This document shows positions 2,446 through 62,868 of a DNA stretch of 64,000 bases, piece by piece. The notes under the pieces were generated by a model. It worked only from the letters and a program-made list of their open reading frames with translations. It did no database searches and was not told the DNA's origin. Positions within the stretch are counted from its first letter, which is position 1. The number at the start of each line of letters is the position of its first letter. This DNA comes from a virus (taxonomy: Duplodnaviria; Caudoviricetes), in IMG/VR virus record IMGVR_UViG_2615840593_000003, positions 90,765 to 154,764 of that record, one strand, 5' to 3'. A program made the position numbers and the translations under genes.

Positions 2446-5195
2446 TTAAACTGCAACAATATTATGTTTTCAAACTAACTACCTCTAGACTTGCAGAATT
2501 TGATTATGATATTAAAGATTTAACTGTCTCCCATGCTAGATTAAATGGAGAGCTAGTACAGATCGGTGATAACCAAGTGTTTAGGATGATTCGCAAGATA
2601 AAAAATACTAAAACAGAATTTGAATCATTAAATTTAGCAATCAATGAGCGTAACGATCTTAAGAAGTTAGATTCAAATGATGAAAACTCTATAAAAATAG
2701 CACAGAAACAAAAAAACATAGATGACATCTTATTTGTTCCAGACATTATCAATATTAAAGTTGATGATAAAAAAGTTTATAAAAAGATATTCAAAGAAGG
2801 ATTCACTGTAAATGGTATCACTTTTAAACGTTTTTGTAGTGGTGCAGGACAATCGAGACAATCTGTAGCGTCATTCTGTAATATTGACATTATAGAAGAA
2901 TTAACAAGACGCTTGAATTGTGGATTAAGCATTAAAGAAATTAACGTTGCAAAGTATAATGCTTACTTCGGGTTATATATGTCTGCTACATACCCTGTTC
3001 GAACTCCCAATGTATGCGTCATTCCTGATTATGAGGACGAAGAGTTAGTTAAAAAGGTTGATTGGATTGATGATGTAGAAATTGACGGTAAAGATAAGCG
3101 TATTGTGTATGAGAAAGATGATTTTATATTTAAGCCTAATATGTGGGATGGACAAGGATTGGTTTCCCCTACTTTTGCAGAAAAATGGCAAGAGGATTTA
3201 AAACTTGAATATCTCCCTTCTCAATTTGTAGTTCGTAGTAGCTTCGTTAAAGGTGCGTTAGCTGTTTTCGATTTTCATAAGTTTGCACAGGAAGAAGCTA
3301 AAACAAATAAAATTAAAGATATTTATGGAGATGAGTGGGATATTGATGATATAGATGTAATACTCTCTGCCTCTCAGTTCAAAATGAATAAATTTTACTC
3401 GTCATGGGAGCAGTTTTTACAACTTCAAGAACATCATGGTTTAACTTGGGGAGTTACTAAGGTCAATCCTAAAGCAGATAATGAAGTTAGTTTGCTGAAT
3501 TACCAATACATGCAATCATTAAATCTAGATAAAGAAAAAATTCAACAGCTTATCTCCCCTACTGTTGATTGGATTGAAAAGATTTGCCGAGGAGATAAAC
3601 TTTACACTTTGTTATTCTTACTAGGATCGTCTAATAAAACAGATACAATTGAAGCCATTTTTAATAAAACAAATAATAACTATGTAAAAGCTATCTTATA
3701 TAATGACAAATTACTGAATGATCCTTTTATAAAGAAGAAAATTTATGACAATATCTCAACGAAAATCGATGAAGCTAAGATTGGTCGCATTTGGGTGAAT
3801 GGGAACTATCAATTCATGATTAGTGACCCTTATGCACAAGCTCAATTTGCATTTGGAATGAAAGTTACTGGTCTACTGAATGAATTTGAACATTATTCAC
3901 ATTTCTGGAACGAACTCGAAGTTAATAAAGTAGATGCCTTGCGTAGCCCATTAGTTGATTTCCATGAGCATAATATGTTGAATCTAGTTGACAATGAAAA
4001 AGTAAATGAATGGTTTAAATATCAACCATCAGGAATAATTTATAATGTGTGGGGTGTTGACACAATACGTCACTCGGATTCTGATTATGATGGGGATATC
4101 GTTTTTACTACAAATAACGAAATTGTGATGGATAATATTGTACCGAATTTAAATGTCATTACTTATGATAAAGCAAGTGCAAAACCACAAAGATTAAATC
4201 CGACTAATATTCTGGCAACAGATTTACGTAGCTTTAACTCAAAGATAGGTACAATCACTAACTACTCTACTACTTTTATCTCTATGCTTGCTAATTTTAA
4301 AGAGAATTCAGATGAATATAAAGAAATACTGAATCGCATTAAATTGCTACGTCGTTATATTGGTGATTCAATAGATCAAGCAAAAGGAATTAAAACTAAG
4401 CCATTCCCTACTGAATGGAAAAAACGTAAATTCGTTGATAAGGATGATAGCGATGAGGTTAAGCAACAAAAATATTATCACAACAGATTGGTTGCTAATA
4501 AGAAACCTTACTTTATGATCTATATTTATGAAAAATTAAGAACTGAATATAGAGAACATCGGAGTAAAACTGATCGCACATGTAAAGAGAAATTTGGTTG
4601 TAATCTACATCAGCTAATGAACAAGCAAGATAAAACCAAAGATGAATCATATTATCTATATAGTTACTATCGTGACATGCCTGTGATTAAGAATGATTCT
4701 GTGATGAATATGCTGTGCAAAATGATCGAAGAAATTGACTTCAATTATAAACGAGTTAAAAATGATGAAAATGTAAATGAAATATTTGATATTCTTTATG
4801 ATTACGAAATTGGTATTGATGAAGAAAGATTGGAAAAATTAATTAAATTACGTTCAAAATTCAATAATAAGCGCAACTTCAAATTCAAATCTAATGCTAT
4901 TGAGAACGTTTCAGAAAATAATTCAGATGAATTAATTAATGAATTTTATAATGAAATACGTACTGAAGCATATGAAATTTGCTCAAATATGAAAGAACTA
5001 GCAAATCATTTAATTTACATAACTTATAAGCTATACCCTAAAGACTCTAAAAATTTCGCATGGCATATTGCAACTGAAGGCATTTTAGAAATACTTGAAT
5101 CCAAATCAGACATGAATATCGAATTACCAATGAAAGATAAAGAAGGAGTTGAGTATTTAGGTAATAGATATTCGTTAAGGAGTGTTGTTGTTTGA
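2442..5195 (+). CDS. yonO: YonO-like single-subunit DNA-dependent RNA polymerase (RdRP-fold)
   Basis: 917 aa; DGQG, RSP and catalytic DSDYDGD (DxDGD) motifs, IDQAK; SPbeta-like position upstream of HU/YonK. Confidence 0.9.
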   Translation: MIKLQQYYVFKLTTSRLAEFDYDIKDLTVSHARLNGELVQIGDNQVFRMIRKIKNTKTEFESLNLAINERNDLKKLDSNDENSIKIAQKQKNIDDILFVPDIINIKVDDKKVYKKIFKEGFTVNGITFKRFCSGAGQSRQSVASFCNIDIIEELTRRLNCGLSIKEINVAKYNAYFGLYMSATYPVRTPNVCVIPDYEDEELVKKVDWIDDVEIDGKDKRIVYEKDDFIFKPNMWDGQGLVSPTFAEKWQEDLKLEYLPSQFVVRSSFVKGALAVFDFHKFAQEEAKTNKIKDIYGDEWDIDDIDVILSASQFKMNKFYSSWEQFLQLQEHHGLTWGVTKVNPKADNEVSLLNYQYMQSLNLDKEKIQQLISPTVDWIEKICRGDKLYTLLFLLGSSNKTDTIEAIFNKTNNNYVKAILYNDKLLNDPFIKKKIYDNISTKIDEAKIGRIWVNGNYQFMISDPYAQAQFAFGMKVTGLLNEFEHYSHFWNELEVNKVDALRSPLVDFHEHNMLNLVDNEKVNEWFKYQPSGIIYNVWGVDTIRHSDSDYDGDIVFTTNNEIVMDNIVPNLNVITYDKASAKPQRLNPTNILATDLRSFNSKIGTITNYSTTFISMLANFKENSDEYKEILNRIKLLRRYIGDSIDQAKGIKTKPFPTEWKKRKFVDKDDSDEVKQQKYYHNRLVANKKPYFMIYIYEKLRTEYREHRSKTDRTCKEKFGCNLHQLMNKQDKTKDESYYLYSYYRDMPVIKNDSVMNMLCKMIEEIDFNYKRVKNDENVNEIFDILYDYEIGIDEERLEKLIKLRSKFNNKRNFKFKSNAIENVSENNSDELINEFYNEIRTEAYEICSNMKELANHLIYITYKLYPKDSKNFAWHIATEGILEILESKSDMNIELPMKDKEGVEYLGNRYSLRSVVV

Positions 5196-5950
5196 TTATT
5201 TTTGATGAAAAGAGATACGCTGAAGCATTGCTTAAAAATGGTTTTGCGACAAAGAATAAAAATGTGTATGAGTTAAATATTCTAGCAAAGTATCTATTTT
5301 ACAAAGGCTTTAAAGAAGATATTGTGAAGCAAAGATTGATTAAATTCTGTGAAAAACACCTCGAACACTTCAATATTGATGAATGGTATAAAGTGATTAA
5401 CACCACTGTATCTTATGCTAAGAATGGAAATTTGAAGACTGATAAAGAAGTCAATATTACTGAAAAAGAATTAGAAATAATAAAAGATTTAGATACTTTA
5501 CGTGAGCAAAAATTAACCTTTGTCATGTTAGTGCTGTACAAATTTTATAATTATAACAAATTCACAGTAAGTCTAGAAGATTTATTTACTTTGAGTGAAC
5601 TTACAACGATAAATTCTAAAACAAGACTACAGTTGTTACATAAGCTTACATCTAAAGGTTTAATTGATATTAATATGAAAGGAAGAAGATGGGTTAAATT
5701 CGCTGAAAAGAAAAGTGACCCAATGATTACCATAAAAACTTTTGAAAATTTCATATGGGAGTACTTATTTTATATTGGTGAAGGTAAGTATAAAAGATGC
5801 GAAGAGTGCAATTTGAATTTAGTTAAGATGAATATTCACAATCATTCATATTGTGAATATTGCCGAATAGAAATTAAAAAAATAAGAGATAGACTTTATC
5901 AAAAAGAACGATATAATTCTCGTAAAGCAAGTAAACATTCAAAGCCTTGA
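5192..5950 (+). CDS. hypothetical DNA-binding protein (wHTH-like, C-terminal CxxC..CxxC)
   Basis: Overlaps yonO stop; LLHKLTSKGLIDI helix; CEEC..YCEYC. Confidence 0.6.
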   Translation: MIIFDEKRYAEALLKNGFATKNKNVYELNILAKYLFYKGFKEDIVKQRLIKFCEKHLEHFNIDEWYKVINTTVSYAKNGNLKTDKEVNITEKELEIIKDLDTLREQKLTFVMLVLYKFYNYNKFTVSLEDLFTLSELTTINSKTRLQLLHKLTSKGLIDINMKGRRWVKFAEKKSDPMITIKTFENFIWEYLFYIGEGKYKRCEECNLNLVKMNIHNHSYCEYCRIEIKKIRDRLYQKERYNSRKASKHSKP

Positions 5951-6083
5951 TAATATTGGTTTTTGTTGGTAATGAGTCTGAATACATATATGATAGAAAG
6001 AATAATAAAGACTATTTAACAAATTTTTTAATCTAATAAATACATAAACTAACTTTAAGTGGAGAAAAGGAGAAAATTAAATT

Positions 6084-6434
6084 ATGACAGTAAAAATTAA
6101 CACTCAAGAATTAGGTAAAGATTTACAAGAAATTTTAGAAACAAAAGGAATCGTTATTAAAGCTAAAGAAGGTAAAGAAATTGTAGATGAATTTGTAGAT
6201 GCAATTTTCGAACGAGTAAACAAAGGCGAAACTGTAAAATTAGGAGCATATGCTGACTTAGTTCCTAAAACTCGATCAGCTCGTAAAGGTCATAACCCTA
6301 AATTGCTTAAAGATTTAAAAGATCAAGGTGTACCAGAAGTAGAAGCTAAAAAACAAGCTGAAATTGACATTGCTGAAAAACGTGCTGTAGGTTTAAAATC
6401 TCATAAGAAATTAAATGACTTATTAGAAGGTTAA
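6084..6434 (+). CDS. hup: HU family histone-like DNA-binding protein (YonN-like)
   Basis: GETVKLG..RSARKGHNP..IDI HU signature; strong RBS. Confidence 0.85.
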   Translation: MTVKINTQELGKDLQEILETKGIVIKAKEGKEIVDEFVDAIFERVNKGETVKLGAYADLVPKTRSARKGHNPKLLKDLKDQGVPEVEAKKQAEIDIAEKRAVGLKSHKKLNDLLEG

Positions 6435-6531
6435 TTTTAATACATAGCGAATTAATACAGACGTTTTAAATACAAAATGGAGTTAGTGGTAGGGTTATCC
6501 CCTACTCTTCTCTATTAATTAAATTTTAATT

Positions 6532-6829: not shown

Positions 6830-6840
6830 GGAGTGATTGA

Positions 6841-8058
6841 ATGACTTCTTATGATTTAAAACGTAAAAATACAGAATCACTCGACGATTACCACGTGCGT
6901 TTATTTGAAGATATACCAATACATGAATTAGGTTCGGATGAATTGGCTGAAATACTTAATAAAGAGTATGGTGTTAACTATTCTGAATCTAAATGGCGCA
7001 AGGATTATGCTCAATATGCAAAATGGAAAGATTATATCCTATCCAAACATGTAGATGATTCAGAATTAGATAAGCTTACCGTTAAAAAGCTAGAATTACA
7101 AAAAGAACGCAATAAATTGTCTTCAGAGAAAAATGAGTTGAATAAATGGATACGTGAACAAGCTCGTGCTGAGAACGTGTATGAGAAAATTGAACAAGCA
7201 ATTACAAACCTCTCCACTATTCAAGTACCTGAGATTCAAATCAAAGAATACAACAGTAAACGTACAGCTATTATTGATATTGCCGATGCTCATGTAGGTA
7301 GTCAATGGAAGATTACAGGATTTAATAATGAAGTTATTTCAGAATACAGTATAGAAATATTTAAACGTCGTATGTGGGAACTGTTAGAAAGTACAATTGC
7401 AATTATTGATAAAGAAAAATTGACTAACGTTACCGTATTAAACTTATCAGATTCGATTGACGGATTAATACATATGAATCAATTGCAGTATCAGCAATTA
7501 GGGGTAGCAGATCAAGTAATGTTCTTTGCTGAATTTATGAGTGAATGGCTAAACGCCTTGTCTGAATACGTGACAATTGAATATCGTTCAGTGTTAGGAA
7601 ATCACTCTGAAAATAGATATTTAAATAGTTCTCGTGGAGAACTTCCTCAAGAAAATATGGAACGTTTAATGGTATGGTATTTGAAGACAAGATTGCATGA
7701 AAATAAAAGAATTACAGTACATGATGCTAATAATATCATCTACTTTGACGTTTTAGGCACTAAATTACTTTGTACACATGGTCAAGATGAGAAAAATTTA
7801 GAGTCATCAATTAAAGATTATATGATGATTTATGATGTGAAAGTGCATATGTTGAAGACTGGACATCTACATCATTTACATAATAAAGTAATTGGTGTGG
7901 ACGGATTACAGAATATTGAACATGTACAATCCCCTGCTATCTGTGGATTTAATTCATATAGTCTAAAACTTAAAAAGACAGCTAATGCAGGTACACTAAT
8001 TACCATTTTTGAAGAAGGTTACGGTAAAAGTAATACATATGATATTCGATTTAAATAG
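6841..8058 (+). CDS. calcineurin-like metallophosphoesterase with N-terminal HTH/coiled coil (YonJ-like)
   Basis: DAH, D, GNH, THG, GHLH metallophosphoesterase motifs. Confidence 0.8.
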   Translation: MTSYDLKRKNTESLDDYHVRLFEDIPIHELGSDELAEILNKEYGVNYSESKWRKDYAQYAKWKDYILSKHVDDSELDKLTVKKLELQKERNKLSSEKNELNKWIREQARAENVYEKIEQAITNLSTIQVPEIQIKEYNSKRTAIIDIADAHVGSQWKITGFNNEVISEYSIEIFKRRMWELLESTIAIIDKEKLTNVTVLNLSDSIDGLIHMNQLQYQQLGVADQVMFFAEFMSEWLNALSEYVTIEYRSVLGNHSENRYLNSSRGELPQENMERLMVWYLKTRLHENKRITVHDANNIIYFDVLGTKLLCTHGQDEKNLESSIKDYMMIYDVKVHMLKTGHLHHLHNKVIGVDGLQNIEHVQSPAICGFNSYSLKLKKTANAGTLITIFEEGYGKSNTYDIRFK

Positions 8059-8213: not shown

Positions 8214-9215
8214 TTGTCTACTATTCTAGATAAGGATAAATATAAAAACTGTTCCATGTGTGGAGATAATAAACGGCTCACTGACTATTATAAATCGTAT
8301 AGCCCTATGGATAAAATTGATGAGCGTTTGCGTGTTTGTAAGAAATGCTTAAAAGATAATACAGACAATAATAATATTGACAGTGTAAAGAATACTCTTA
8401 GACAAGTAGATAAGCCATATAACATGCATTTATGGGAGTCTGCTTTAACAAAACCAGACGTTATTGGTGAGTATTTTAAGCTTATCAATGCTAAAGATTA
8501 TAGGCATGATACATGGGAACAGAGCATTTTCGAAGAAGATTCATTGGTAAATGACAATAATTTAAATATCTCCATAGAAACGAAAAATACATTCATGAAA
8601 TCCAAGTTCATTTTAACAGATGAAATAATGGATAAATGGGGATACGGTTACACTGAAGAAGAATATCAAAATTTCGAAAAAAAATATGATAAATTAATTC
8701 GAAATTACGGTGAGAAAACAGCACTACATACTGAAGGTTTACTTATCTATATTAGATTTCGTGTTAAAGAAGAAATGGCAACAGCTAAAGGTGACGTTAA
8801 AGAAGCTAAAGAATGGGGTCAATTGGCTCAAAAACAAGCTCTCGACGCTAAAATAAACGTTTCTCAATTGAGTAAAAGTGATATCAGTGGCGGAGTCGAT
8901 GTTCTTTCACAATTATTTGAAGCAGTAGAAACTGAAGTCGGGGTAATACCACTTCTCCCTAAGATCACTGAACAACCTTATGATGATGCAGATTTAATCA
9001 TTTGGTCTATTATCAATTATTATCGAAGACTAGAAGACAAGCCAAAAGTTGCTTATAAAAATATTTATGATTTTTATGATGAAATGCTTTCAGAGCATTT
9101 TGCTACTCATGGATATACGGATATTGAAATAGAAGAATTCAAAGCAAAAAGAAATAATGTCTTTCGGGATTTAGAGAACGTTTACAAAGAGCCATTATAT
9201 GAAGGTGATGAATAA
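8214..9215 (+). CDS. zinc-finger protein, probable terminase small subunit
   Basis: CSMC..VCKKC; directly upstream of and overlapping terL. Confidence 0.55.
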   Translation: MSTILDKDKYKNCSMCGDNKRLTDYYKSYSPMDKIDERLRVCKKCLKDNTDNNNIDSVKNTLRQVDKPYNMHLWESALTKPDVIGEYFKLINAKDYRHDTWEQSIFEEDSLVNDNNLNISIETKNTFMKSKFILTDEIMDKWGYGYTEEEYQNFEKKYDKLIRNYGEKTALHTEGLLIYIRFRVKEEMATAKGDVKEAKEWGQLAQKQALDAKINVSQLSKSDISGGVDVLSQLFEAVETEVGVIPLLPKITEQPYDDADLIIWSIINYYRRLEDKPKVAYKNIYDFYDEMLSEHFATHGYTDIEIEEFKAKRNNVFRDLENVYKEPLYEGDE

Positions 9216-12533: not shown

Positions 12534-12680
12534 ATGAAGGGTTACTCCCCTACTTTTAATATTAATCCTAAGTCAGAAATTGCTTCGAAAGTACAATCAG
12601 CATTTTTTGAGTTAGGAGTTAAAAATATTAAACACAAAGAAAATTGCACATGTGAAGAATGTAATAACAAAAATACATAA
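12534..12680 (+). CDS. small ORF (48 aa) with C-terminal HxxxCxCxxC
   Basis: GAGGTG RBS; MKGYSPTF...KHKENCTCEECNNKNT; not in ORF track. Confidence 0.55.
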   Translation: MKGYSPTFNINPKSEIASKVQSAFFELGVKNIKHKENCTCEECNNKNT

Positions 12681-12710: not shown

Positions 12711-14156
12711 TTGAACGAGATTTTAAGTATTAAACCAATATCACTTGAATTAAATGAATCAAATGATATTTATATGCTTTTGAATATAGGTATTCTATCA
12801 AATGTTGCTAACTACAATGATGCACAATTTACGGATGAATTCATTGAATATATTGTTTCGAATAAAGATACATATATTGGACTTCCACTTCAAGTTAATA
12901 AGGAAAAGTTAGAAAATGCTGAGTACGAGAATCTAACTCACGAATTAGTAAATGGTAAGTTGATGACAGATTCTATTGGTTCTTTTGTGGACTATTGGAC
13001 TGAAATTGTTGATGATGCAACAGTTCTGATGGGCAGTGTTAAGATTTGGAAGAGATACCCTAATACATGTAATGCCATTCTTGAATTATATGAGAACGGA
13101 GATTTAGAATCCTCTTGCGAAGTAATGGTTAAAGAATATAAAGAAATTACTGAAGACGGTATTCGTATCATTGACCACGCAGAAGGAAGCAACGCATTCA
13201 TTGGTTCTGCAATTGTTTCTAGTCCTGCTGAAGTTAGAGCAAAAGCTACCCTATTAGTTGCAGAAGCATATGAAAAAGATTTGAGTATTGAAAATGAAGG
13301 AAAAGGAGATGACAATGTGGCTGAAAAAGAAGTATTTAACAAAGGTCATAAAATTCAGTATAAAGGAAAATTTGAAACAGCTTCACTTAAATACAGTGAG
13401 ATTTCAAATCAAATTTATAATAAATTGAATCCAATTAACGCAAAAACAAATGGTCGTCAGTACAACTATTATATTCATACAATTTATAATGACAATGTTA
13501 TTGTTGAAGATTGGGACGATTATGAGGTATTATTCAAAATTCCTTATTCAATTGAGAATGATGAAGTAATTATTTCACCATCAGACCAATGGGAACAAGG
13601 TAAGTTAGGGTTTATTCCTGACAACACTACAGAATTAGCTAATATCTTAGCTGATAAAGAGAAAGAATTAAGTGATATTCAAGATGAATTGACACAGGTT
13701 AAAGAGGAGTTAGCATCGATGAAAAATAACGAAACAAAAGAAGTGACCGACTTTGACGATAAAATCAAAGAGCTTAATGGTACTATCGTAAATCAAGCGC
13801 AAACTGAATCTGAATTAAAAAATGAGATTGCCGAACTTAAATCTACTATTGATGATTTAAATCAATATAAGGAGAAAGTTGAAAAAGCTGAAAAAGAAGC
13901 TGAGATCACTGAGTTAAGTAACAAGTATTCCAAATTACTTTCAGAGGAAGCATTTAAATCAGAAGAAGTTCAAAATGCTATTCAAGAATTGAATTCTGAA
14001 AAATTAAATGAAATTGTTGTGAATGAAGTAACAAAGCAAAAAAATGATGTAGAAGTTGCATCTAAACAGAATGATGATGTTGTCGTTGTGGCAAACAAAC
14101 AAGAAGATTTAATTGTAAAAGATAAGCGTGAGTTCTGGGCTTCCCCTCGCTCATAA
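12711..14156 (+). CDS. prohead protease/scaffold protein (YonD-like)
   Basis: Between portal and capsid genes; N-terminal protease-like region (SSCE), C-terminal coiled coil. Confidence 0.65.
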   Translation: MNEILSIKPISLELNESNDIYMLLNIGILSNVANYNDAQFTDEFIEYIVSNKDTYIGLPLQVNKEKLENAEYENLTHELVNGKLMTDSIGSFVDYWTEIVDDATVLMGSVKIWKRYPNTCNAILELYENGDLESSCEVMVKEYKEITEDGIRIIDHAEGSNAFIGSAIVSSPAEVRAKATLLVAEAYEKDLSIENEGKGDDNVAEKEVFNKGHKIQYKGKFETASLKYSEISNQIYNKLNPINAKTNGRQYNYYIHTIYNDNVIVEDWDDYEVLFKIPYSIENDEVIISPSDQWEQGKLGFIPDNTTELANILADKEKELSDIQDELTQVKEELASMKNNETKEVTDFDDKIKELNGTIVNQAQTESELKNEIAELKSTIDDLNQYKEKVEKAEKEAEITELSNKYSKLLSEEAFKSEEVQNAIQELNSEKLNEIVVNEVTKQKNDVEVASKQNDDVVVVANKQEDLIVKDKREFWASPRS

Positions 14157-17608: not shown

Positions 17609-18150
17609 AGCTAAAAGAATCACTAGAGAAATTATTCATAGAGTTGTCTAAAGACGAAGAATTGTTAAGACTTCTTCATTATGTTCCAAAAGATGCATTA
17701 GATGATCCCTTAGATAAATCAAAAGCTGATATCACTAGTTTAAAAGATAAGTATAAAATCATTTCAAAAGCAATAATACCATCAGATAAAACCTATGATT
17801 TAGTCTTAGAATCTAAAATGTCTCGTATTTGCTTTTATACTGGCACTCGTAAACCTCAAACAAGTAATAATAGTTATACAGGAAGATTACAAGACAATCC
17901 ATATTCATCTAACCAAGTTTATAATTTTGACGTATATGTACATGTGGATATTGATATAGTTGATTTTCGTATGACTTGGATTTGCGATAGATTAGATGAA
18001 TTACTACTCCTCAACAAGATTACAGATGTTGGGGATTTTATTTTGGCATTCAGCTCCCCTATTAATAATACACCCAAAGGTTTTATCGGGTATAAATTAG
18101 CCTATGCTACTACTTCACTTCAAGAATCACCTAAGAGAGTCCAAAAATGA
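17605..18150 (+). CDS. tail terminator-like protein
   Basis: FDVYVH..DRLDELL pattern; synteny. Confidence 0.5.
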   Translation: MKLKESLEKLFIELSKDEELLRLLHYVPKDALDDPLDKSKADITSLKDKYKIISKAIIPSDKTYDLVLESKMSRICFYTGTRKPQTSNNSYTGRLQDNPYSSNQVYNFDVYVHVDIDIVDFRMTWICDRLDELLLLNKITDVGDFILAFSSPINNTPKGFIGYKLAYATTSLQESPKRVQK

Positions 18151-19940: not shown

Positions 19941-19971
19941 GAGTAGGGTTAACTCCCCTACTCTATTTTTA
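19941..19971 (+). terminator. intrinsic terminator (GAGTAGGG..CCCTACTC family)
   Basis: GAGTAGGGTTAACTCCCCTACTC followed by TATTTTT. Confidence 0.75.
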
Positions 19972-20489: not shown

Positions 20490-20490
20490 T

Positions 20491-20991: not shown

Positions 20992-21036
20992 GCTTCAAGT
21001 CTTTTTTATTTCATTCTTATGAAAGGAGAATGATTA

Positions 21037-22065: not shown

Positions 22066-22156
22066 ATAACTGAACTACTCCCCTACTCTTTTTAGGGGTT
22101 TACTTGAGTTATTTATATGATATCAGGTTTTTATTTAACAAAATACATAAATACAC

Positions 22157-22185
22157 TTGAAATAATTTAACTCTCCTGTTATTAT
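22157..22185 (+). promoter_or_regulatory. putative sigmaA promoter (TTGAAA-17-TATTAT, extended TG)
   Basis: Consensus spacing upstream of the antirepressor gene. Confidence 0.55.
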
Positions 22186-22255
22186 TGATTTGTAGGTAAG
22201 AATTTCACATGACATCTACTAATTAATAAAATACATAATTCAAGGGAGAGATTCA

Positions 22256-23179: not shown

Positions 23180-23227
23180 TTTAACAAATACATATATTTA
23201 ATTTATAAAACAAAAGGAGATAATTCA

Positions 23228-47229: not shown

Positions 47230-48615
47230 TTGACTACTAATATTTATATAGATGCTATTAAGGGGTCTGATGCAACTGGCGATGGCACAGCACAAAAACC
47301 ATATAAAACGTTACAATACTTCTGTTTGAACAAAGCTGTTAGAGTTAGTGTCAACTATACTATTTATTTAAAAAAAGGAATCTATGAAATCACAGATGGT
47401 ACAATATTTGGTATTTTTGCTAGCGGTAATATCACTATCATTGGCAAAGACAAAGATACAGAAGTCATACAAAAAGTTGGCATGTATCCCAACAGCAGTG
47501 GTGGAAATAAAGATTTCACCTTAACAATTGCTAAGTTAAAATACAACATAGTTAAATCTCTTAGTAATGCTAACTTAAATAGCTATAAATGGAATTGGAA
47601 TTTTTATAATGTTTTAATAGAATATATGCCTGATAATGCCTACAGTGTCATGTATCCAATAGGTTCTAAGACAGTATTTAGAAATTGCGTAAAGTTAACT
47701 AGTTCAACTTCTATGTTTAGAACTACCGAAGGCATTGTAGAAGTGTACGATTCAATTGGCTACTTTACAAGCGGATATTCCACTAGTCAAACCAGCTGGG
47801 ATAAAAGAGGGAATACAATTGGTTCCATTGTTAACTATGAAGAAGTTTTAAAAAAAGGAGCATACCCTTGGAATATTAATAGAACTCTGATTCTGCATAA
47901 TAGCGAATATAAAAGATACAGTGAAGCTAAAGAAGAAATATTATCATATAAAAAAATTAATACGAATATGACTGCTAATATTTCTAATGGTTTTGAAGTA
48001 ACTGGTACTACATCCTTAGGCAGCTTACCTTTATATTATGCATTTGATGGAAAATTAGATACATGGTATAGAACTAATGATTCACCAACAGCAGATATAA
48101 CTCTTAAACTACCAGAAAAGAAAAGAATTGGTAAATTTAATCTGGCAAATCATCCTAATGGGAACCCTAATAAATTTGAATTGTATGCATCAAATAACAA
48201 TACAAGCTGGGTAAAACTAACCGAGGGGAATTTTATGGCTACCGGCACATTTAAAGGAGAATATACCTTTGATAATAAAAGCGAATATCAATATTATAAA
48301 TTATCTATTCTAGGTGTTTCTGGTTCATATGTTTATATTGTTGAACTTGAATACTTTGAAACAATAGTAGAAAAAGAAGCTACAGAAGAAGGCTGGGATG
48401 TTGTTTCATCTACAATTCCTAGTGCTTCAATGTATATTGACAATGGCATGGATACATTATCAATATTTAATAGAGCTAATGTTACATTAAAATCTCAAAA
48501 AATGACAAATAAAGATGAGATTTTAAATGGCGAGCAAGGCAAGGTTTTTAGTGCAAACATTGACTTAAAAAAATACTTTGACATTGTAAGTGTAAGAACG
48601 GAGGTTAAAAAATAA
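47230..48615 (+). CDS. tail appendage protein (GDGTAQKPYKTL N-terminus + discoidin domain)
   Basis: GSDATGDGTAQKPYKT; YAFDG..FELYASNN..YQYYKL. Confidence 0.7.
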   Translation: MTTNIYIDAIKGSDATGDGTAQKPYKTLQYFCLNKAVRVSVNYTIYLKKGIYEITDGTIFGIFASGNITIIGKDKDTEVIQKVGMYPNSSGGNKDFTLTIAKLKYNIVKSLSNANLNSYKWNWNFYNVLIEYMPDNAYSVMYPIGSKTVFRNCVKLTSSTSMFRTTEGIVEVYDSIGYFTSGYSTSQTSWDKRGNTIGSIVNYEEVLKKGAYPWNINRTLILHNSEYKRYSEAKEEILSYKKINTNMTANISNGFEVTGTTSLGSLPLYYAFDGKLDTWYRTNDSPTADITLKLPEKKRIGKFNLANHPNGNPNKFELYASNNNTSWVKLTEGNFMATGTFKGEYTFDNKSEYQYYKLSILGVSGSYVYIVELEYFETIVEKEATEEGWDVVSSTIPSASMYIDNGMDTLSIFNRANVTLKSQKMTNKDEILNGEQGKVFSANIDLKKYFDIVSVRTEVKK

Positions 48616-50537: not shown

Positions 50538-52763
50538 ATGGCTAATATAAAAGATAATTTGAGTGCATATGGTAGAGCCTTTATTGGTTTTGATGAGCCT
50601 AGTGGTAATGCTATGGATTCAATTGGTGGATATACAGGAACACTAGTGAACAACCCTACTCGTGTAACTGGTTGGAATGGAAAAGGAAATGCCATGAGTT
50701 TTAAATCATCCTCTAGTAACAGGATTATGTTTAACAATAGTATACTTCCATCAGGAAATAGAAGCTATAGATTTAAAATAAAAGTAGAACAAAAGCCTAG
50801 TGTAGTAAGAATAATTTTTACTACTGGTAGTCTAAGTGCATCTCATCATGGAGATCAAATCTCAATGAGAACAAATGGCAGTATCGCTTGGCATTCCTGT
50901 AGAGCTATATCTGCTTCTTTTAATTTTGTACTAGAATCTACATTGGATATATGTGACAATCTATGGCATGACATCCTATTTGAATTAAATGATGGTATAG
51001 TATCATTATATATAGATGGTAATCTAGATAGTACAACAACTAGTGTAAACACAACTGGTATTTATAAGCACTCTTACAATTTAAATTTTGGCAGTGGTTA
51101 CGCCAACGCAGAAGGAACGACATTTGATTGGCATTTTAATGGTCAACTAGACCAAGTTGAAATCTATGATGGAGTAATTTCCCCTATTCCTGACAAATAT
51201 CTTGTATATCATATGTCTCAATACAAGTATTATGATGGAACCTCATGGAAAGTAACCACAAATACAGAAGAAAATTTTATTAAAAATGGAATGGATAACT
51301 TAGATCATGTTAAAGAAGCCCAATGGAAAGAGATATCAGGAGATAAGTCACTGGTAATGTGGACTGATTTCAAGGATAAGCAATATATTTCTATAGAAAC
51401 AAATACTACTCCGTACAGTATCTATGATTATATTTCAGAAACACCAGAGGTTCTAGTCTACACAGAAGCTACAGATGATATTATTGTATCAACAAATACT
51501 GAATCATTTGACATTTATGATGAATTTGGTGATAGTGTTGAAGTTCTTTATTACACTGACGACAAAGCTGTAACAAATGCTGAACTAATCCTAGAAGCTA
51601 ACTGGTCACCTATTGATGAATTAGAAGGTGATTTTGAGGTTGTAACATGGACTGATGAAGCTCCTGCTACTGCTCAAAGAGTATTAGAAATGACAGCAGT
51701 ACCTAAACCTCAATTCATTAAGCTAGTTAACCCTAAAAGTGTGTATGGGGCTTTAGATGATGTTATTGTTAATGACATTTCTAAATCATATCGTGATGAA
51801 GCTAGATACTTTGTCGCAGGAGAAGATGCTTCAAAATGGTACATATGGGATAATTCAACACAGAAGTTTATTGTTTCTGATACCTCATCAGAAGAAGCTA
51901 TTCTTAAAAATGGTATGAAGTATCGTGATCTAAACAATATAACCGATAGACAATGGAGAACTTGGGATAATAAATATTTAAACATCGGCATGTTCTTAAA
52001 AGATAATCCTCGTGACACGGTGGTTTCGATGGTTGAAAGTGTGTCGTATAAAGATTATCTTCCTCGTAACTCTACAATTATTAAAGATACAAGCTTTTAC
52101 ATTATAAATACTACTGCAAAAATTGATATTGAGCTAAATGGTAATATTCTTAAAGGTATTTTAAGTGACAGTGATTTAACTCGTGTTCAATACAGAGTGT
52201 TGCTGAACGGTGGTTATTATTATCCAACTGATGGAAGCTTTACTAAACTAGGTGAATCACCTCAAAATATTGAATTAATTATTGGTAGTAAAGATATTAA
52301 GATTGATGATTGGAATACTTTAAAAGTAGAGTTTCAAGATTTCTTTGGAACTACTGATTATTGGCAAACTAGCTTTATTGGTACATATTCAGGACTTATG
52401 TTTAAAAATATTCATGGTGAGTATTATTCAAGTGAAATCGGCGAGGTTTTAAAGTACCTTGATTTCGGGGTTATTATTGCAGGACAGACTACAATTGAAT
52501 ATGAAGTTATTCTTAAAAATCAATATGGATATGATGTTAATAATATTCACCTATTCGCAAACGTATCTAATTCCCCTACTGGAATGGATATAGAATTTAG
52601 TGAAAGTCTTACCCCATTCATTCCTAACAACGAATTATTACTTAATAAAATACTTAAAAACAATGAAGAAATGTCATTCTTTATTAGATTAAAAACAACA
52701 TTGGGTGTAACGCCTAACGCTAATGGTTCATTTGACATTATCGTAAGAGCAGATAAAGCCTAA
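50538..52763 (+). CDS. LamG/ConA-like lectin domain tail protein
   Basis: FDEPSG..DNLWH..LYIDG..FNGQLDQVEIYD. Confidence 0.75.
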   Translation: MANIKDNLSAYGRAFIGFDEPSGNAMDSIGGYTGTLVNNPTRVTGWNGKGNAMSFKSSSSNRIMFNNSILPSGNRSYRFKIKVEQKPSVVRIIFTTGSLSASHHGDQISMRTNGSIAWHSCRAISASFNFVLESTLDICDNLWHDILFELNDGIVSLYIDGNLDSTTTSVNTTGIYKHSYNLNFGSGYANAEGTTFDWHFNGQLDQVEIYDGVISPIPDKYLVYHMSQYKYYDGTSWKVTTNTEENFIKNGMDNLDHVKEAQWKEISGDKSLVMWTDFKDKQYISIETNTTPYSIYDYISETPEVLVYTEATDDIIVSTNTESFDIYDEFGDSVEVLYYTDDKAVTNAELILEANWSPIDELEGDFEVVTWTDEAPATAQRVLEMTAVPKPQFIKLVNPKSVYGALDDVIVNDISKSYRDEARYFVAGEDASKWYIWDNSTQKFIVSDTSSEEAILKNGMKYRDLNNITDRQWRTWDNKYLNIGMFLKDNPRDTVVSMVESVSYKDYLPRNSTIIKDTSFYIINTTAKIDIELNGNILKGILSDSDLTRVQYRVLLNGGYYYPTDGSFTKLGESPQNIELIIGSKDIKIDDWNTLKVEFQDFFGTTDYWQTSFIGTYSGLMFKNIHGEYYSSEIGEVLKYLDFGVIIAGQTTIEYEVILKNQYGYDVNNIHLFANVSNSPTGMDIEFSESLTPFIPNNELLLNKILKNNEEMSFFIRLKTTLGVTPNANGSFDIIVRADKA

Positions 52764-56113: not shown

Positions 56114-56157
56114 AGAGTAGGTGCGAGTTAATTCTCCCCTACTCTTTTATTATTTTA
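56114..56157 (+). terminator. intrinsic terminator before lysis genes
   Basis: AGAGTAGG..CCTACTCT followed by TTTATTATTTT. Confidence 0.65.
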
Positions 56158-57845: not shown

Positions 57846-60131
57846 TCAACTTTTCCACTTTCCCTTTTCCTCTTCACTTACAATCAACTTGTATCCAGAC
57901 TGTTTAGTTTTTGGAGACTCCAACCACCCCTCTTCTACTAAATCTCGCATTAAATCATTCAATTTATTTATATTTATTTTCATATGATTACGCAAAGGAG
58001 AAATCCTTGTTTCACCTGTATTAGTTATTATCTTCTTCAATTTATCCAAATCACTTTCTTCTTTAAATTCCTCTACTTCAGGTAACTCCACAAGCACTTT
58101 TTCATGTTTAATTTGATTTGCTATTTTATTTATTAGCTTACTCTCCAAACCATCATCATATGGATCATCCACAATTAAAGCACCTTGAAACCTTATATGC
58201 TCTTCAGATTGACCTTCAAAATCCATTACTCCATCACCATTACCTATTAATTCGAATTTTGGCGAAGTATTTAGGAATGTTAAATAACTTCGTTTATTTG
58301 CACACCTAAATCCAATCTTGCTAGGTAAATTAGACTTTATTGTTCCGTTTATCACATCAACACTTGGTCGTTGCGTTGCTATTATTATATGAATTCCACA
58401 AGCACGAGAGAGTTGAGTTAATGATTGAATATAAGTATGAATATCACTATTTCTACTAGTCAGTTCTGCATATTCGTCAATAATGCACAAAATGTATGGG
58501 AGTTTATTTTTAGATTTTTTATTGTATAAGCCAATATTTTTAACTCCTGCATTCTTAAATAATTCATAACGTCTATTCATTTCGGCAATTAATTGATTCA
58601 ATAGCTTTATAGCATCATTTGCTTCTGTAATAACCGATTGAACATGATCAAATGAAGAGAAATGAACTAATTCTACTTGTTTAATGTCTATCATGAACAG
58701 TTGCAATTCAGAAGGATTCTTAATTATAAGTAGTGTTAAAATTAGTTGATTCAACCAGACACTTTTCCCTGAACCTGTTGATCCTGCAACCAGTAAGTGT
58801 TTGATTCTACTCATACAACTATAAACAGGATTACCATCCTCATCTACTCCTACAAGGAAAGGTAATGAATGATTGTTTGCGAATTCTTTAAATTCTTCAT
58901 TATCAATGTAATCCCTTAAGAATACCTTCTGTCTTTTTTCTAAAGGTAGTATTACGTCAATTTCCCCTACATCTACCCCTTGTTTAATTTGTAATTGTTT
59001 AACTCCCATTTTTATTTGGATGTCACTTATTACATTAGGCTTATTTAACTCAGAAAATTTTAATTGTTTAGGTAACTTGAATGTGATTTTCATAATAGTT
59101 GAACCTGATCGATATTTTATCATTTCCAAAGATCCTTTGAACGACTTCAATTCCTTTAATGCAAAGATAAATTTATCAGCTAAATTACTACCATCGAATT
59201 GTTCAATACCTTTTCCTCTAGGTAGTAATTTAATTAAATTGTTTGATTCTGACTTGATTACTTCAATCTCTTTTTTATCAATGCGGACTACATTTTCAAC
59301 AACTTGTGTCATGTTTTCAAGAACCATAAATGGGAGTATTTCTGACTCTGACAATGTATGATTTTTAGATTGATAATCTAATATCCTTTTATTAAACATT
59401 TCTGATCCATATTTAAAATCCATTTTGCAATCAATTAACCATTCATTTGTATATGAATATTTATTTACTTCACATTTAATCTTCGATATCGAATACTCTC
59501 TTTCTAACTTAGTGCCTCCAATTAAAGCCAATCTAATATTAAATCTAAATCCATTTTCCTCTAATTTCTGTCTAACCTCTTTAATTTCAGAGTGTTTTTG
59601 CTCCCATTTTAAAAATCCATCCATTTTCTCAGTAAAATTTCTTTGTATTTTTCTAAATAAACCATTATCAGAAGGATTCTGAACTCCGTTTAAATAGTCA
59701 TTATACTGTTCTACAATTTTATCTCTCCAGTTATCTTGTCTGTATACAAGAAGCAACTGATATTTATAGTTAATGTGCGAAGGAATAATTGAATTAATTA
59801 ATTCAAAGAACGTCGAAGAAGTATTCATTTCAATAGGAAACATTGAAGGCTTAAACAAGTGTAATTGTGCAAATGTAGTATTCTCAGAGTTTGAGTTTAA
59901 GTACTGTGCTGAGTTATTCTTAATTGTTGTTAATTTACATTCATAATTAGGTTGAGAAAAGAAAGTGATCGACTGCTGGTTAAATACCCTTAAAGCTTCT
60001 ACTCCAAATACGCCATCCATAAATGATGACACGATTTCTTTTGATTGATCAATAGTTAACGAGCTTAAAAAATAATCAACATACTTATCATTCTTGATGA
60101 CACTAGGAGTAATCAATCTATTCAGTATCAT
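57846..60131 (-). CDS. ftsK: FtsK/SpoIIIE family DNA translocase with C-terminal gamma-like winged helix
   Basis: HLLVAGSTGSGKS, IIDEYAEL, ATQRPS, LIGNGD; C-terminal RISPLRNHMKININKLNDLMRDLVEEGWL. Confidence 0.9.
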   Translation of the reverse strand: MILNRLITPSVIKNDKYVDYFLSSLTIDQSKEIVSSFMDGVFGVEALRVFNQQSITFFSQPNYECKLTTIKNNSAQYLNSNSENTTFAQLHLFKPSMFPIEMNTSSTFFELINSIIPSHINYKYQLLLVYRQDNWRDKIVEQYNDYLNGVQNPSDNGLFRKIQRNFTEKMDGFLKWEQKHSEIKEVRQKLEENGFRFNIRLALIGGTKLEREYSISKIKCEVNKYSYTNEWLIDCKMDFKYGSEMFNKRILDYQSKNHTLSESEILPFMVLENMTQVVENVVRIDKKEIEVIKSESNNLIKLLPRGKGIEQFDGSNLADKFIFALKELKSFKGSLEMIKYRSGSTIMKITFKLPKQLKFSELNKPNVISDIQIKMGVKQLQIKQGVDVGEIDVILPLEKRQKVFLRDYIDNEEFKEFANNHSLPFLVGVDEDGNPVYSCMSRIKHLLVAGSTGSGKSVWLNQLILTLLIIKNPSELQLFMIDIKQVELVHFSSFDHVQSVITEANDAIKLLNQLIAEMNRRYELFKNAGVKNIGLYNKKSKNKLPYILCIIDEYAELTSRNSDIHTYIQSLTQLSRACGIHIIIATQRPSVDVINGTIKSNLPSKIGFRCANKRSYLTFLNTSPKFELIGNGDGVMDFEGQSEEHIRFQGALIVDDPYDDGLESKLINKIANQIKHEKVLVELPEVEEFKEESDLDKLKKIITNTGETRISPLRNHMKININKLNDLMRDLVEEGWLESPKTKQSGYKLIVSEEEKGKWKS

Positions 60132-61141
60132 TTTCTCATCACCTTTGGTTTCTTCTTAGTGATCATTCTCAATGGTCTTACAACCGTGTACACCCCTTCC
60201 CACATGCTCTTGATATTAGCTCCTTTATCTACATGTCTAGAAATAATATTAGGAGGAGTATTCATTCTCCATAAGCCACCTATAATAATGCCCATCTGAA
60301 TCATGATATCCCATCCACTGTTAGGTAACTTAGTAGCAAATAACAATGTGCCAATTAATAATAGAAACACAGCGTATACCAATTGGGTTGATGCACATTT
60401 CTTAATATACTCCCACCAAGTATAAAATAAGTTTTCATGCGCCTTAAATACCCAACAAGCTAATGCTAATGGAGTCATAGCACCTAACGCCAATAGATCA
60501 AACCAACGACGAAAATTTTGTAAAAGTATCGGAATCAACATAGAAATCAACGCAATATCAAATCCAATTAAACCGATAACTTGTAGGAAAGTGACATCAT
60601 CTAATGCAATTTGACTAATCCCCTTATCCATTTGATGTTTGCCAAAGTTTAATATTATATCAGTTAGTTTATTCAGACCTTTAAATCCATAGTAAAATAT
60701 ACTAGGTGCTAACGCTGAACCTATTACTACTAAAGGGAAACGCTTAACTATTCGCTTCATATCTGAAAGATCTTTATTTTTAATTAAGTCACCAGACATT
60801 CGTTGAAACCCTTCATACATACAAATCAAAATTACCATGGCAATACTTAATCCACCGAATGTAACTACATTACTTTTAAACCAAACTGAACTGAACAAAA
60901 ATGAAGGAGTATGAAGAATAACTTTAGATAATGTTTCAAATACCCAAATAATTAAATCTGATGATATTTCAATAAGATTTTGCTTTATATTTTTGAACCA
61001 ATTTATGGTATCTGTTATGTCTTTTATTACGTTGTTTAAATCTTGCTTAGATTCTTCTGACACTGGATTAAATTTATCATACCATTTTGCAGATACTTCC
61101 ATTTGCTTGAATGATAAAACTGAAAATGGAACAGCGCACAT
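60128..61141 (-). CDS. polytopic membrane protein (VirB6/TrbL-like)
   Basis: About 6 TM segments, RWFDLLALGAMTPLALACW; start uncertain (ATG 61141 overlaps upstream stop; track ORF extends to 61354). Confidence 0.6.
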   Translation of the reverse strand: MCAVPFSVLSFKQMEVSAKWYDKFNPVSEESKQDLNNVIKDITDTINWFKNIKQNLIEISSDLIIWVFETLSKVILHTPSFLFSSVWFKSNVVTFGGLSIAMVILICMYEGFQRMSGDLIKNKDLSDMKRIVKRFPLVVIGSALAPSIFYYGFKGLNKLTDIILNFGKHQMDKGISQIALDDVTFLQVIGLIGFDIALISMLIPILLQNFRRWFDLLALGAMTPLALACWVFKAHENLFYTWWEYIKKCASTQLVYAVFLLLIGTLLFATKLPNSGWDIMIQMGIIIGGLWRMNTPPNIISRHVDKGANIKSMWEGVYTVVRPLRMITKKKPKVMRK

Positions 61142-61695
61142 TAAAAGAACGCTTCTAATCCATGGACGTTTTTGAATAGTAGAACGGTAAGGCTTGCTAA
61201 TATTAGGATTATTACAGGAGCTAATAACACTTGACCGAATCCTTTTATTATGTCTTCTGTCCACTGTTTTGATTTCACTTTGTTTCCTAACATCCAATAT
61301 ATCCCTGCAACAGACATTAGAATCATAGCTAATGCGACTGCTATTGTTCCGCAAGCTAAAATTAATTGCATCAGAATATCTATTATCTCTGGGGGAAGTA
61401 TTTCTATTGTTTTTGATGAGTCTAAGAGGGGTTGAAGTATTGACGCACTTGCATTCTGATTTGTATGTAGCAAAGGGATTAATGAAATGGATATCATCTG
61501 TAATGATTTCATTATCTTTAGTTGTGTTTTCTTTGGATGAATGTTCACCTCCTCTATTAATGATTCCATAAAAGAGAAAGAATCCTCCTTGCTAGAATAT
61601 TTAGATGACTTTACCCCATTAATACTCATTGTGCGAATCCCATCATTATAATTGAAACTTATTATTGTTTTTGTCACTCTTTTTCCCTCCTCCAT
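61141..61695 (-). CDS. two-TM membrane protein (VirB2/TrbC pilin-like C-terminus)
   Basis: AxA signal-like site, then TM-GNKVKSKQW-TM hairpin; likely GTG start at about 61677. Confidence 0.5.
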   Translation of the reverse strand: MEEGKRVTKTIISFNYNDGIRTMSINGVKSSKYSSKEDSFSFMESLIEEVNIHPKKTQLKIMKSLQMISISLIPLLHTNQNASASILQPLLDSSKTIEILPPEIIDILMQLILACGTIAVALAMILMSVAGIYWMLGNKVKSKQWTEDIIKGFGQVLLAPVIILILASLTVLLFKNVHGLEAFF

Positions 61696-61780
61696 GATAC
61701 CAATTCATCACCTTTGCCATTCCTACAAATCCAGTTAATGCAATTCCAACTTGACCTATTAAAACAACAATTCCACTCAC
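61646..61780 (-). CDS. small hydrophobic protein (44 aa, MSGIVVLIGQVGIALTGFVGMAKV...)
   Basis: AAAGGGGG RBS + GTG; one TM; first gene of the ftsK operon; not in ORF track. Confidence 0.55.
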   Translation of the reverse strand: MSGIVVLIGQVGIALTGFVGMAKVMNWYHGGGKKSDKNNNKFQL

Positions 61781-61855
61781 GATTATTCCCCCTTTTGTAT
61801 AAAATCATTTCGGTTGGGCAGATTAAGAATAAAAACCAGACAGGAGATTACTTCT

Positions 61856-62032
61856 ATGATTAGATCGTTTTACGATTGGTTACATGAACCTGAACCAGAT
61901 TGGAAAGTTAATTTAGAACAATGTGATACAAGTGTATTCCGTGTATTGAAAATGGAGAAAAGACAGGTGGAAGAAATATTAGAAGTACTACATGAGTTTG
62001 GAGTATTTGAAAAGGCAACTTCTGAAGAATGA
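61856..62032 (+). CDS. hypothetical protein
   Basis: CAGGAG RBS before MIRSFYDWL (track start 61814). Confidence 0.5.
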   Translation: MIRSFYDWLHEPEPDWKVNLEQCDTSVFRVLKMEKRQVEEILEVLHEFGVFEKATSEE

Positions 62033-62300
62033 TTTCTTGTTATTATCGAAACTGATGTATTAATTTCACATGATAAAATGCTAATTATCGCTGATAATTT
62101 GATTATTTGATAATTAGGTAAGACAAATTTTCTTATATGGTTAATGCCATATTATCTAAAATAAATTAAAAATATACCTTAACTTTTAAAAACAGTTTTG
62201 AGTTTTTATCTGTTATCCTGACTCTACCACATTGACATTATTGTAATGTGTTTTTTGTTTTAAATTATTTTGAACTTAATCGTAATTTATGTAGGCATGT

Positions 62301-62340
62301 TAAAAATAATTACAAATAATTAAAAATAATTTTAAATAAT
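62301..62340 (+). repeat. four phased 10-bp direct repeats TnnAAATAAT (parC/operator-like)
   Basis: taaaaataat tacaaataat taaaaataat tttaaataat. Confidence 0.6.
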
Positions 62341-62398
62341 TCAAACATATACTCTCCTCATATGACATAAATAATAAATATGGAGGGAGTGGTATGTC

Positions 62399-62611
62399 TT
62401 GGCGATAATCAGATCAGAGGAAGAAGCTGAACGTATAATTGAAGAACTACTGAAAAAAGGAAACGGAAAATACATCACTCAAAGCGTTTTATTTAAAAAA
62501 GATAGTCCCCAACAATTAGAATTGCTAAAGAATGTGTTAATGAGGTCTACTTCATTCGGGGCATATGCGAGAAAAGCGCTAATTGACTTCCTTGAAAATG
62601 AAAATAAATAA
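62399..62611 (+). CDS. ParR-like ribbon-helix-helix protein (short paralog)
   Basis: GKYITQSVLFKKDS..ELLK..STSF; similar to the 63692 product. Confidence 0.6.
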   Translation: MAIIRSEEEAERIIEELLKKGNGKYITQSVLFKKDSPQQLELLKNVLMRSTSFGAYARKALIDFLENENK

Positions 62612-62868
62612 AAGTATGACCATCTGCGTTCCATTACTATAAGTGACGTTTGATGGTTTTTGTTGTCTCAATCCCCTTCTAAATTAATTACTTTTAATAA
62701 AATCCCCATATTATCTAATTTTAAAGTCCTTAAAACCCAATGTTTACAAGGGTTTCGTAAATCAAAATAATTTAAAATAAGTCAAATAACTTTAAAATTT
62801 TACTCATTTTTATAAATCTTAGTCATAAGCTACATTAACATCAACAAATTGAGCGAAAGGGGATTTTA

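Follow-up and report, generated by a model that had tools for sequence, protein, structure and literature searches.

A strand-polar TCCCCT word selected in the late genes of a diverged SPbeta-like prophage, with a possible role as a host-type FtsK/SpoIIIE guide

The hexamer TCCCCT and its octamer extension TCCCCTAC are a real, selected, DNA-level polar word in the late genes of a large provirus. The window analyzed here is a stretch of 64,000 nucleotides, bases 90765-154764 of one 154,764-base record (IMGVR_UViG_2615840593_000003) that IMG/VR classes as a provirus, 88% complete. Judged by its YonO-type RNA polymerase, terminase, portal, tail and lysis genes and its recombinase, the element is a diverged SPbeta-like prophage of 154.8 kb, and the window comprises its late arm and a short tail of minus-strand genes. 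We propose tentatively, at a probability of roughly 40%, that the prophage keeps host-type FtsK/SpoIIIE polarity words across its length, including a late block that runs head-on to host replication. Such words belong to the class of the FtsK orienting polar sequences (KOPS) and the SpoIIIE recognition sequences (SRS).

TCCCCT occurs 30 times on the plus strand of the window and twice on the minus strand, and TCCCCTAC occurs 15 times on the plus strand and never on the minus strand (Table 1). The initial annotation had listed the same 30 hexamers, all of which are present, and about 15 octamers; the single AGGGGA that it reported at 48224 is there, but a second at 62858 was overlooked. Across the whole genome the hexamer stands at 50:4 (plus:minus) with no reversed 10-kb bin, and 15 of the 16 octamers fall within genome positions 93929-149727, the remaining one lying in the early arm at genome 7294. 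Dinucleotide shuffles of the window (n = 100, strands pooled) yield 11.1 hexamers (standard deviation 3.2, maximum 19) and 0.50 octamers (maximum 2). The chance expectation of about two hexamers put forward earlier was too low, and the excess itself is real. A third-order Markov model of the plus strand right of 85 kb expects 12.9 hexamers and 1.04 octamers, against 33 and 15 observed. The codon-preserving shuffle named as a check in the annotation leaves the excess in place: among 50 late open reading frames (ORFs), the 19 hexamers (2.28 expected) and nine octamers (0.61 expected) were each reached in 0 of 500 synonymous-codon shuffles. The form CCCCTNC likewise exceeds the codon null in the provirus (14 against 1.52, 0/200). 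A literature search for the octamer as a whole word, covering both strands and both DNA and RNA spellings, found it in one unrelated paper only.

Selection on the word is shown only for the plus-strand late block. Plus-strand ORFs upstream of the YonO-dependent operon (window 697-6434) carry two TCCCCT against 0.13 expected (0/500), and the corresponding ORFs of Bacillus phage BUCT082 also carry two (0.28 expected). Sense AGGGGA in the minus-strand genes of the early arm reaches 11 against 8.33 under the codon null, and six of 17 early-arm sites have ribosome-site geometry. The early-arm polarity needs no selection, because composition and ribosome-site words yield the G-rich sense form at the expected level. 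The suggestion that the word ignores gene direction therefore holds in part: the sites at 23674, 58963 and 60619 keep their plus orientation inside minus-strand ORFs, but the early arm requires no such explanation and the site at 23935 has ribosome-site geometry.

The effect on coding sequence is visible. Among the 19 sense-strand intragenic sites, 16 read TCC-CCT (Ser-Pro), three use the next frame and none the third, contrary to the frame independence first described. Late Ser-Pro pairs are spelled TCC-CCT in 16 of 45 cases (1.66 expected) and early pairs in 0 of 34; Ser-Pro-Thr appears ten times in late proteins against 2.7 expected, with seven of the ten encoded by the octamer. The DNA word has therefore shaped codon choice and even residues. 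A peptide motif was considered and rejected: the biased thing is the choice of codon rather than the residue pair, and relatives infecting Bacillus subtilis use all three frames (5, 4, 4 and 8, 3, 4). A general coding habit was rejected as well, with early genes holding 0 sense TCCCCT (0.49 expected) and host ORFs being depleted (12 against 20.3).

The family-wide pattern is the same. Late regions of the B. subtilis phages BUCT082 and Goe11 carry TCCCCT in ratios of 19/1 and 21/3 (sense/opposite) and exceed the codon null (13 against 4.80 and 15 against 4.45, 0/300), with early genes at 1 against 1.18. Among 7-mers, CTCCCCT ranks first or nearly first for enrichment in the provirus and in both of these phages (10 against 1.03 in the Goe11 late region), and late BUCT082 holds 13 CCCCTNC against 3.99. 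The late region of prophage G215 has 14 TCCCCT against 5.0, along with enriched CTCCCC, and that of the Paenibacillus prophage G002 has CCCTCTC, whose G-rich face is GAGAGGG, at 8 against 0.43. The extension after TCCCCT differs by lineage, being TAC here and T(C/T) in the B. subtilis phages, whose G-rich version is GAAGGGGA, and in L003 and L004. These last two share 78-81% DNA identity with the provirus; they keep the core at shared sites and have new sites on other Ser-Pro codons. At shared sites, L003, L004 and L060 read TCCCCT(T/G)C in place of the octamer. Sites turn over between relatives with density maintained. Relatives of 25-27% GC that encode YonO show no TCCCCT enrichment (2 sense/8 antisense; 1/4). 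The late region of one low-GC relative, G060 (L085-L087), has a sense word of its own, AGACCCT, found seven times in ORFs against 0.81 expected and in the region as a whole at 8 sense to 1 other.

Among the kinds of signal proposed in the initial annotation, a KOPS-like one fits best. The complement, (A)GTAGGGGA(G), contains GTAGGG and so fits the GNAGGG core common to KOPS, GGGNAGGG, and SRS, GAGAAGGG (both as quoted in a section of PMC8190038). Over the whole genome GNAGGG occurs 18 times on the top and 90 times on the bottom strand (36, 5, 42 and 7 bottom-strand copies in four genome parts), and GNAGGGG twice and 34 times. Within the late block GNAGGGG is found once on top and 20 times on the bottom, 13 of the 20 being GTAGGGG. 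GAAGAAG stays sense-biased, 26 to 5, and therefore only the GNAGGG word family is turned against the genes. Exact SRS in late regions follows suit, with 0 sense and 5 antisense copies in Goe11 and 0 and 4 in BUCT082.

Orientation relative to replication can be read in related prophages with host flanks (G042, G046, G001, G002 and G215). In all five, transcription of the late genes is head-on to replication, and the leading strand of the host, as assigned from flank GC skew and gene orientation, is the one with the G-rich words. B. subtilis-type hosts themselves carry AGGGGA at 142 leading to 24 lagging and GTAGGGG at 11 to 1. Among host ORFs, those co-directional with replication are depleted of the wrong orientation (2 CCCCTNC against 14.0 expected) and head-on ones are not (8 against 10.7), which indicates a strand-level rather than messenger-level constraint in the host. 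Core-word density and skew in the G042 prophage resemble those of the host DNA next to it on the terminus side: GNAGGG is at 24/110 in 135 kb of prophage and 24/51 in 60 kb of flank, GNAGGGG at 3/38 and 1/14, and SRS at 0/7 and 0/4. Together with the lack of a gamma domain in SPbeta-like relatives described below, this argues for a host-type rather than phage-specific signal, the outcome that the annotation had itself said equal host density and skew would signify. The pps operon region, tried as a long head-on host control, was discarded as co-directional by skew.

Polarity of this kind is already known from lambdoid prophages of Escherichia coli, in which, according to the available portion of PMC3603311, KOPS are over-represented, 86% co-oriented with replication and as dense as in the host's terminus half. 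The word described here shares with KOPS its G-rich, polar nature, its GNAGGG core and its presence on one strand regardless of genes. It differs in that its conserved block GTAGGGGA is offset by two bases, that the host is a low-GC Firmicute, and that it stands antisense in a 55-kb head-on late operon, with codons and residues visibly affected. Words of the relatives are lineage-specific with the same polar pattern in late blocks. SRS of B. subtilis SpoIIIE is a second comparable system, AGTAGGG and AGAAGGG differing at a position that KOPS leaves free, and in the SPbeta-like phages of B. subtilis sites of this kind read (G)AGAAGGGGA(G). The phage words, however, extend 3' (GGGGA) and not 5' (GAG), and host ORFs hold no more exact SRS copies than the codon null predicts (6 against 9.6). 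What is new is the word, the host group and the codon-level sculpting.

Under the host-type reading, TCCCCTAC would be the C-rich face of a G-rich polar word, (A)GTAGGGGA(G), carried on the minus strand of the provirus throughout. By analogy with the five related prophages, the minus strand would serve as leading strand when the lysogen's replichore is copied, and the provirus's host would read the word. A host FtsK-family pump of the SpoIIIE or SftA type, its gamma domain reading the words, would be steered through the 155-kb insert towards the terminus. The early arm, with genes running along the polarity, may acquire the words at no cost, since G-rich codons and ribosome sites supply them. 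The direction is opposite in the 55-kb block that begins with the YonO-like gene and ends with the lysis genes, and a head-on block of that length would presumably need compensation. There the words, which mostly appear as TCC-CCT(-ACN), encoding Ser-Pro(-Thr), and as the 3' arms of terminator hairpins, would have been written antisense into coding sequence, and copies on the sense strand would have been removed.

Several observations weigh against this proposal. The five orientation cases represent at most about three independent integrations, and since every one of them has its late genes head-on, the effects of orientation cannot be separated from those of late transcription. The provirus record has no host flanks, so its own orientation to replication is not readable from it. 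Host head-on ORFs are not enriched for the permissive orientation, whether scored by CCCCTNC (as above) or by TCCCCT (12 against 10.95); the prophage signal is hence much stronger than that in host genes. The two-base shift of GTAGGGGA from the SRS/KOPS octamer window counts on the same side, and none of 401 Bacilli genomes carries GTAGGGGA near its late-block density of 273 per Mb (highest, about 75 per Mb). Nor is the exact octamer spread over the replicon, with sense GTAGGGGA in the early arm at 1 against 0.32 expected.

A further point concerns Chi, which in B. subtilis is AGCGG (as given in part of PMC3321194). In SPbeta-like phages AGCGG is avoided on one strand, the plus strand (one copy where 12.8 are expected and none where 6.0 are), and host ORFs show no such avoidance; top/bottom counts over both arms (L001, L084, L002) are 1/20 and 1/18 for BUCT082 and 3/19 for Goe11. 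Part of the polarity is thus phage-specific rather than host mimicry, and belongs to the phage life cycle, for instance to one-way packaging from pac, which a section of bioRxiv 10.1101/2021.11.22.469490 places between yonR and yonP in SPbeta relatives. Chi-type and packaging-motor signals, both raised in the initial annotation, stay among the rivals, the Chi-like one below the host-type reading.

That the octamer is itself a Chi-like signal for a host AddAB/RecBCD-type nuclease we consider unlikely. An enzyme entering the pac-side end, left of the late block, and moving rightwards would meet GTAGGGGA on the minus strand from its 3' side and would be switched from degradation to repair, protecting the packaging-proximal 55 kb. 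The word suits such a role in being short, G-rich and in a single orientation relative to the DNA end (15 of 15 one way), at about 1 per 3.7 kb and concentrated beside the expected pac region, and the true Chi is orientation-selected in SPbeta-like phages of B. subtilis. Chi in phage lambda is comparable: it is short and G-rich, and the way it faces the packaging end decides its effect. The word here differs in being confined to one arm. However, the octamer is not AGCGG, which stands at 3/1 in the provirus late block, and we know of no Chi that it resembles. The G-run words coexist with AGCGG in B. subtilis phages and so are not the Chi of that species, the word has a Chi-like density in 0 of 401 Bacilli genomes, the other DNA end would be left unprotected, and the packaging direction is our reading of a figure legend.

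Late transcription offers another improbable explanation, in which UCCCCUAC would act in late mRNA as the conserved 3' arm of terminators, or as a place of pausing or processing that involves the YonO-type polymerase or some partner. Consistent with it, the selected signal is confined to the plus-strand block that starts at the YonO-like gene. In addition, five of 15 octamers lie in hairpins (Table 1), four of which have near-identical stems and T-rich tails just 3' of genes. The other ten octamers have no hairpin and nine of these ten sit within plus-strand ORFs, so that as a class the sites are not terminators (G+C-rich hairpin and T run after a gene). On YonO signals only one paper was found, from 2017 (PMC5467207); it leaves the promoter open and gives the polymerase's other signals as unknown too. 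Its mapped YonO start, position 2225998 in G042, has no TCCCCT within 270 nt upstream, the nearest being 278 nt away. With this and the low-GC YonO encoders that lack enrichment, a YonO promoter or universal YonO signal was rejected. Words are also equally dense in plus-strand ORFs upstream of the YonO-dependent operon, and octamers occur antisense in a minus-strand gene (58963) and in the early arm (genome 7294). The interval from the mapped start to the yonK start codon (G042:C1:2225998-2227297, L082) is itself about 1.3 kb free of long ORFs, and part of PMC5467207 mentions an unannotated non-coding RNA in that interval.

A third possible reader, in the version of the initial annotation, is the phage's own FtsK-like ATPase; the annotation credited the product of 57846-60131 with an FtsK gamma domain. 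The octamer layer (GTAGGGGA, 15 to 0, late block only) would then be a private word for this pump rather than host mimicry, read through a divergent gamma-like C-terminal end, a proposal that we regard as a long shot. If true, the phage would encode its own translocase, steered by DNA sequence and serving to move or position phage DNA, in a module of pump, membrane protein and ParM-like protein common to Bacillus myophages. In its favor, the motor domain is clear (3.1e-41), and the sharp octamer layer is specific to this phage, with L003, L004 and L060 differing at shared sites. Weak leads to a gamma domain, each below threshold, lie at residues ~694-742. A six-frame scan gives gamma 12.4 bits there (E 0.02), under the cut-off of 30.6. 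In an atlas look-up the top three clusters for the C-terminal end are all FtsK_gamma, at 0.87-0.88 where 0.9 is needed for more than a lead. With E values up to 1 allowed, Pfam reports the motor domain and nothing else; a BLASTP comparison with the gamma domain of G042 SpoIIIE returns E = 10, and phmmer of the C-terminal end against solved structures returns one unrelated hit (E 0.53). Among SPbeta-like relatives that carry polar words, 0 of 5 records have an FtsK_gamma domain, and a search of BUCT082 1-100 kb and Goe11 8-58 kb gave nothing matching the FtsK-like protein.

Bacillus myophages carry homologues of this pump, with the same kind of neighbors as in the window, namely a membrane protein and a ParM-like gene. 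In the window the module spans 57846-63705 and comprises the FtsK-like ATPase, a 408-amino-acid protein (phrog_3750) and a ParM/ALP-like protein; a similar set of FtsK-like, membrane and ParM-like proteins lies at record positions 20340-26628 of Bacillus myophage 015DV002. That phage, whose homologue is 33% identical, shows no enriched polar G-rich word, in a test made weak by the 144 of 153 called ORFs on one strand. Its enriched words over the codon null (L176-L177) are CCCGGGA (8 against 1.05), TTCCCGG (8 against 1.38) and ACCCGGG (6 against 0.88), which we take to resemble the Noc-binding site of B. subtilis. A phage-encoded gamma domain has been proposed for oriented DNA transport in Bacillus phages Sam46 and Sam112, whose small terminase would read KOPS/SRS-like sites (from a portion of PMC8190038). 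The sole candidate here differs in being a weak gamma-like end on an FtsK-like ATPase, and the gene adjoining the terminase (8214-9215) has no FtsK_gamma domain.

An origin without function, through strand-biased mutation, codon-pair habit or shared descent of sites, is hardly credible: C is relatively enriched on the plus strand as a whole (GC skew about -0.25 for the early and +0.13 for the late arm), but the null that keeps each gene's codons and protein yields 0/500, early and host genes lack the excess, other purine-rich words are not reversed, sites turn over with density kept, and the protein sequence itself is shifted to Ser-Pro-Thr. A primase start site, also suggested at the outset, was rejected: CTA, which lies within the word, is a primase start preference, yet it shows hardly any skew (994 to 875), and only one arm carries the signal.

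The gene layout places a large serine recombinase at the left end of the record, followed by about 82 kb of minus-strand genes and then the plus-strand block. A run of ten N (genome 2585-2594) interrupts the recombinase ORF (genome 2390-4411, minus strand). The YonO-like product matches the Pfam RdRP family PF05183 at 1.5e-16 and is 36% identical to a BUCT082 protein over 99% of its length. The late block also encodes a terminase that shares 78% identity with its BUCT082 and SPR counterparts, and it holds the portal, tail and lysis genes. Searches of viral and genome contigs turned up no close relative of the YonO-like protein, a 12-kb megablast query had no match among phages, and a terminase search was positive in 1 of 91 genomes of the family and 1 of 401 of the class. 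L004 is mosaic, with a terminase 93% identical to that of the window and an SPbeta-type YonO (33% identity, 513 residues). Two treble-clef zinc-finger proteins are encoded in the window, one (CoiA_N and zf_Tbcl; 697-2445) overlapping the start of the YonO-like gene by four bases and the other (28551-30392) with four DUF4379 repeats.

Two further sequence elements were observed. Between the two arms, AGGGGA and TCCCCT face each other five bases apart in an intergenic palindrome, GGAGGGGATATATTCCCCTTCC, at genome 86445-86461. In addition, AATACATA(A) is present in 120 copies genome-wide (50 plus, 70 minus), with an orientation that tracks gene direction; examples are window 14936, 22994, 28384 and 44672, and the minus strand across genome 13240-74350. 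It usually follows TTAAATAATAA, 15-30 nt upstream of a ribosome site, and looks like a phage-specific promoter or operator. Words of this type are enriched in early genes of relatives (TACATAA in BUCT082, 23 against 6.2; ATACATA in the G215 prophage, 73 against 24). AATACATA includes UACAU, the cleavage site of B. subtilis MazF/EndoA.

Table 1. Copies of the polar word and associated genes, in window coordinates.
Feature	Position	Strand	Context
YonO-type single-subunit RNA polymerase gene	2442-5195	+	opens the plus-strand late block
FtsK/SpoIIIE-family ATPase gene	57846-60131	-	PF01580, 3.1e-41; candidate reader (weak), possible divergent gamma-like C-terminal end
TCCCCTAC	3165-3172	+	within YonO-like gene, Ser-Pro-Thr
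TCCCCTAC	3555-3562	+	within YonO-like gene, Ser-Pro-Thr
TCCCCTAC	6498-6505	+	intergenic; 3' arm of hairpin 6488-6506, after HU-like gene
TCCCCTAC	12546-12553	+	interval between portal gene and next gene (small ORF, Ser-Pro-Thr); TCCCCT core kept in L003, L004, L060
TCCCCTAC	19155-19162	+	intragenic, Ser-Pro-Thr
TCCCCTAC	19954-19961	+	3' arm of terminator-like hairpin 19941-19963, then T run; entire hairpin kept in L003
TCCCCTAC	22079-22086	+	intergenic, overlapping hairpin 22080-22098
TCCCCTAC	22992-22999	+	intragenic, second frame, Ile-Pro-Tyr
TCCCCTAC	25735-25742	+	intragenic, Ser-Pro-Thr
TCCCCTAC	30404-30411	+	3' arm of terminator-like hairpin 30391-30413, then T run
TCCCCTAC	38331-38338	+	intragenic, Ser-Pro-Thr
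TCCCCTAC	44097-44104	+	intragenic, second frame
TCCCCTAC	52572-52579	+	intragenic, Ser-Pro-Thr
TCCCCTAC	56135-56142	+	intergenic; 3' arm of hairpin 56114-56145, then T run
TCCCCTAC	58963-58970	+	antisense within minus-strand FtsK-like gene
TCCCCT only	7930-7935	+	Ser-Pro; core kept in L060
TCCCCT only	14142-14147	+	Ser-Pro
TCCCCT(AT)	18055-18060	+	Ser-Pro; kept in L003
TCCCCT(AT)	20776-20781	+	Ser-Pro; core kept in L003
TCCCCT	23674-23679	+	within minus-strand ORF
TCCCCT	23935-23940	+	complement AGGGGA 8 nt upstream of ATG of minus-strand ORF; ribosome-site geometry
TCCCCT(AT)	24335-24340	+	intergenic
TCCCCT only	28644-28649	+	Ser-Pro
TCCCCT(GC)	34673-34678	+	Ser-Pro-Ala, within 2225-amino-acid tail gene
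TCCCCT only	37037-37042	+	Ser-Pro
TCCCCT(AA)	40160-40165	+	Ser-Pro
TCCCCT(T)	45983-45988	+	second frame
TCCCCT(AT)	51180-51185	+	Ser-Pro
TCCCCT	60619-60624	+	within minus-strand ORF whose sense strand reads Lys-Gly
TCCCCT	62672-62677	+	intergenic
Opposite copy, AGGGGA on plus strand	48224-48229	-	5 nt upstream of ATG; ribosome-site geometry
Opposite copy, AGGGGA on plus strand	62858-62863	-	5 nt upstream of ParM-like gene start

Overall, if the host-type reading is right, large SPbeta-like prophages of spore-forming Firmicutes would be sculpted down to codons and residues in order to keep host polarity across a 45-55 kb operon that runs counter to replication. Because the word stands out from coding bias there, the late block would give a direct readout of the host's FtsK/SpoIIIE guide word, and the joint change of words and gamma domains could be followed across Bacillus, Paenibacillus and their relatives. 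Avoidance of Chi in one orientation shows that SPbeta-like phages are shaped by more than one polar DNA system. Should one of the rival explanations prove right instead, the octamer would mark an unknown phage process that is open to direct testing.

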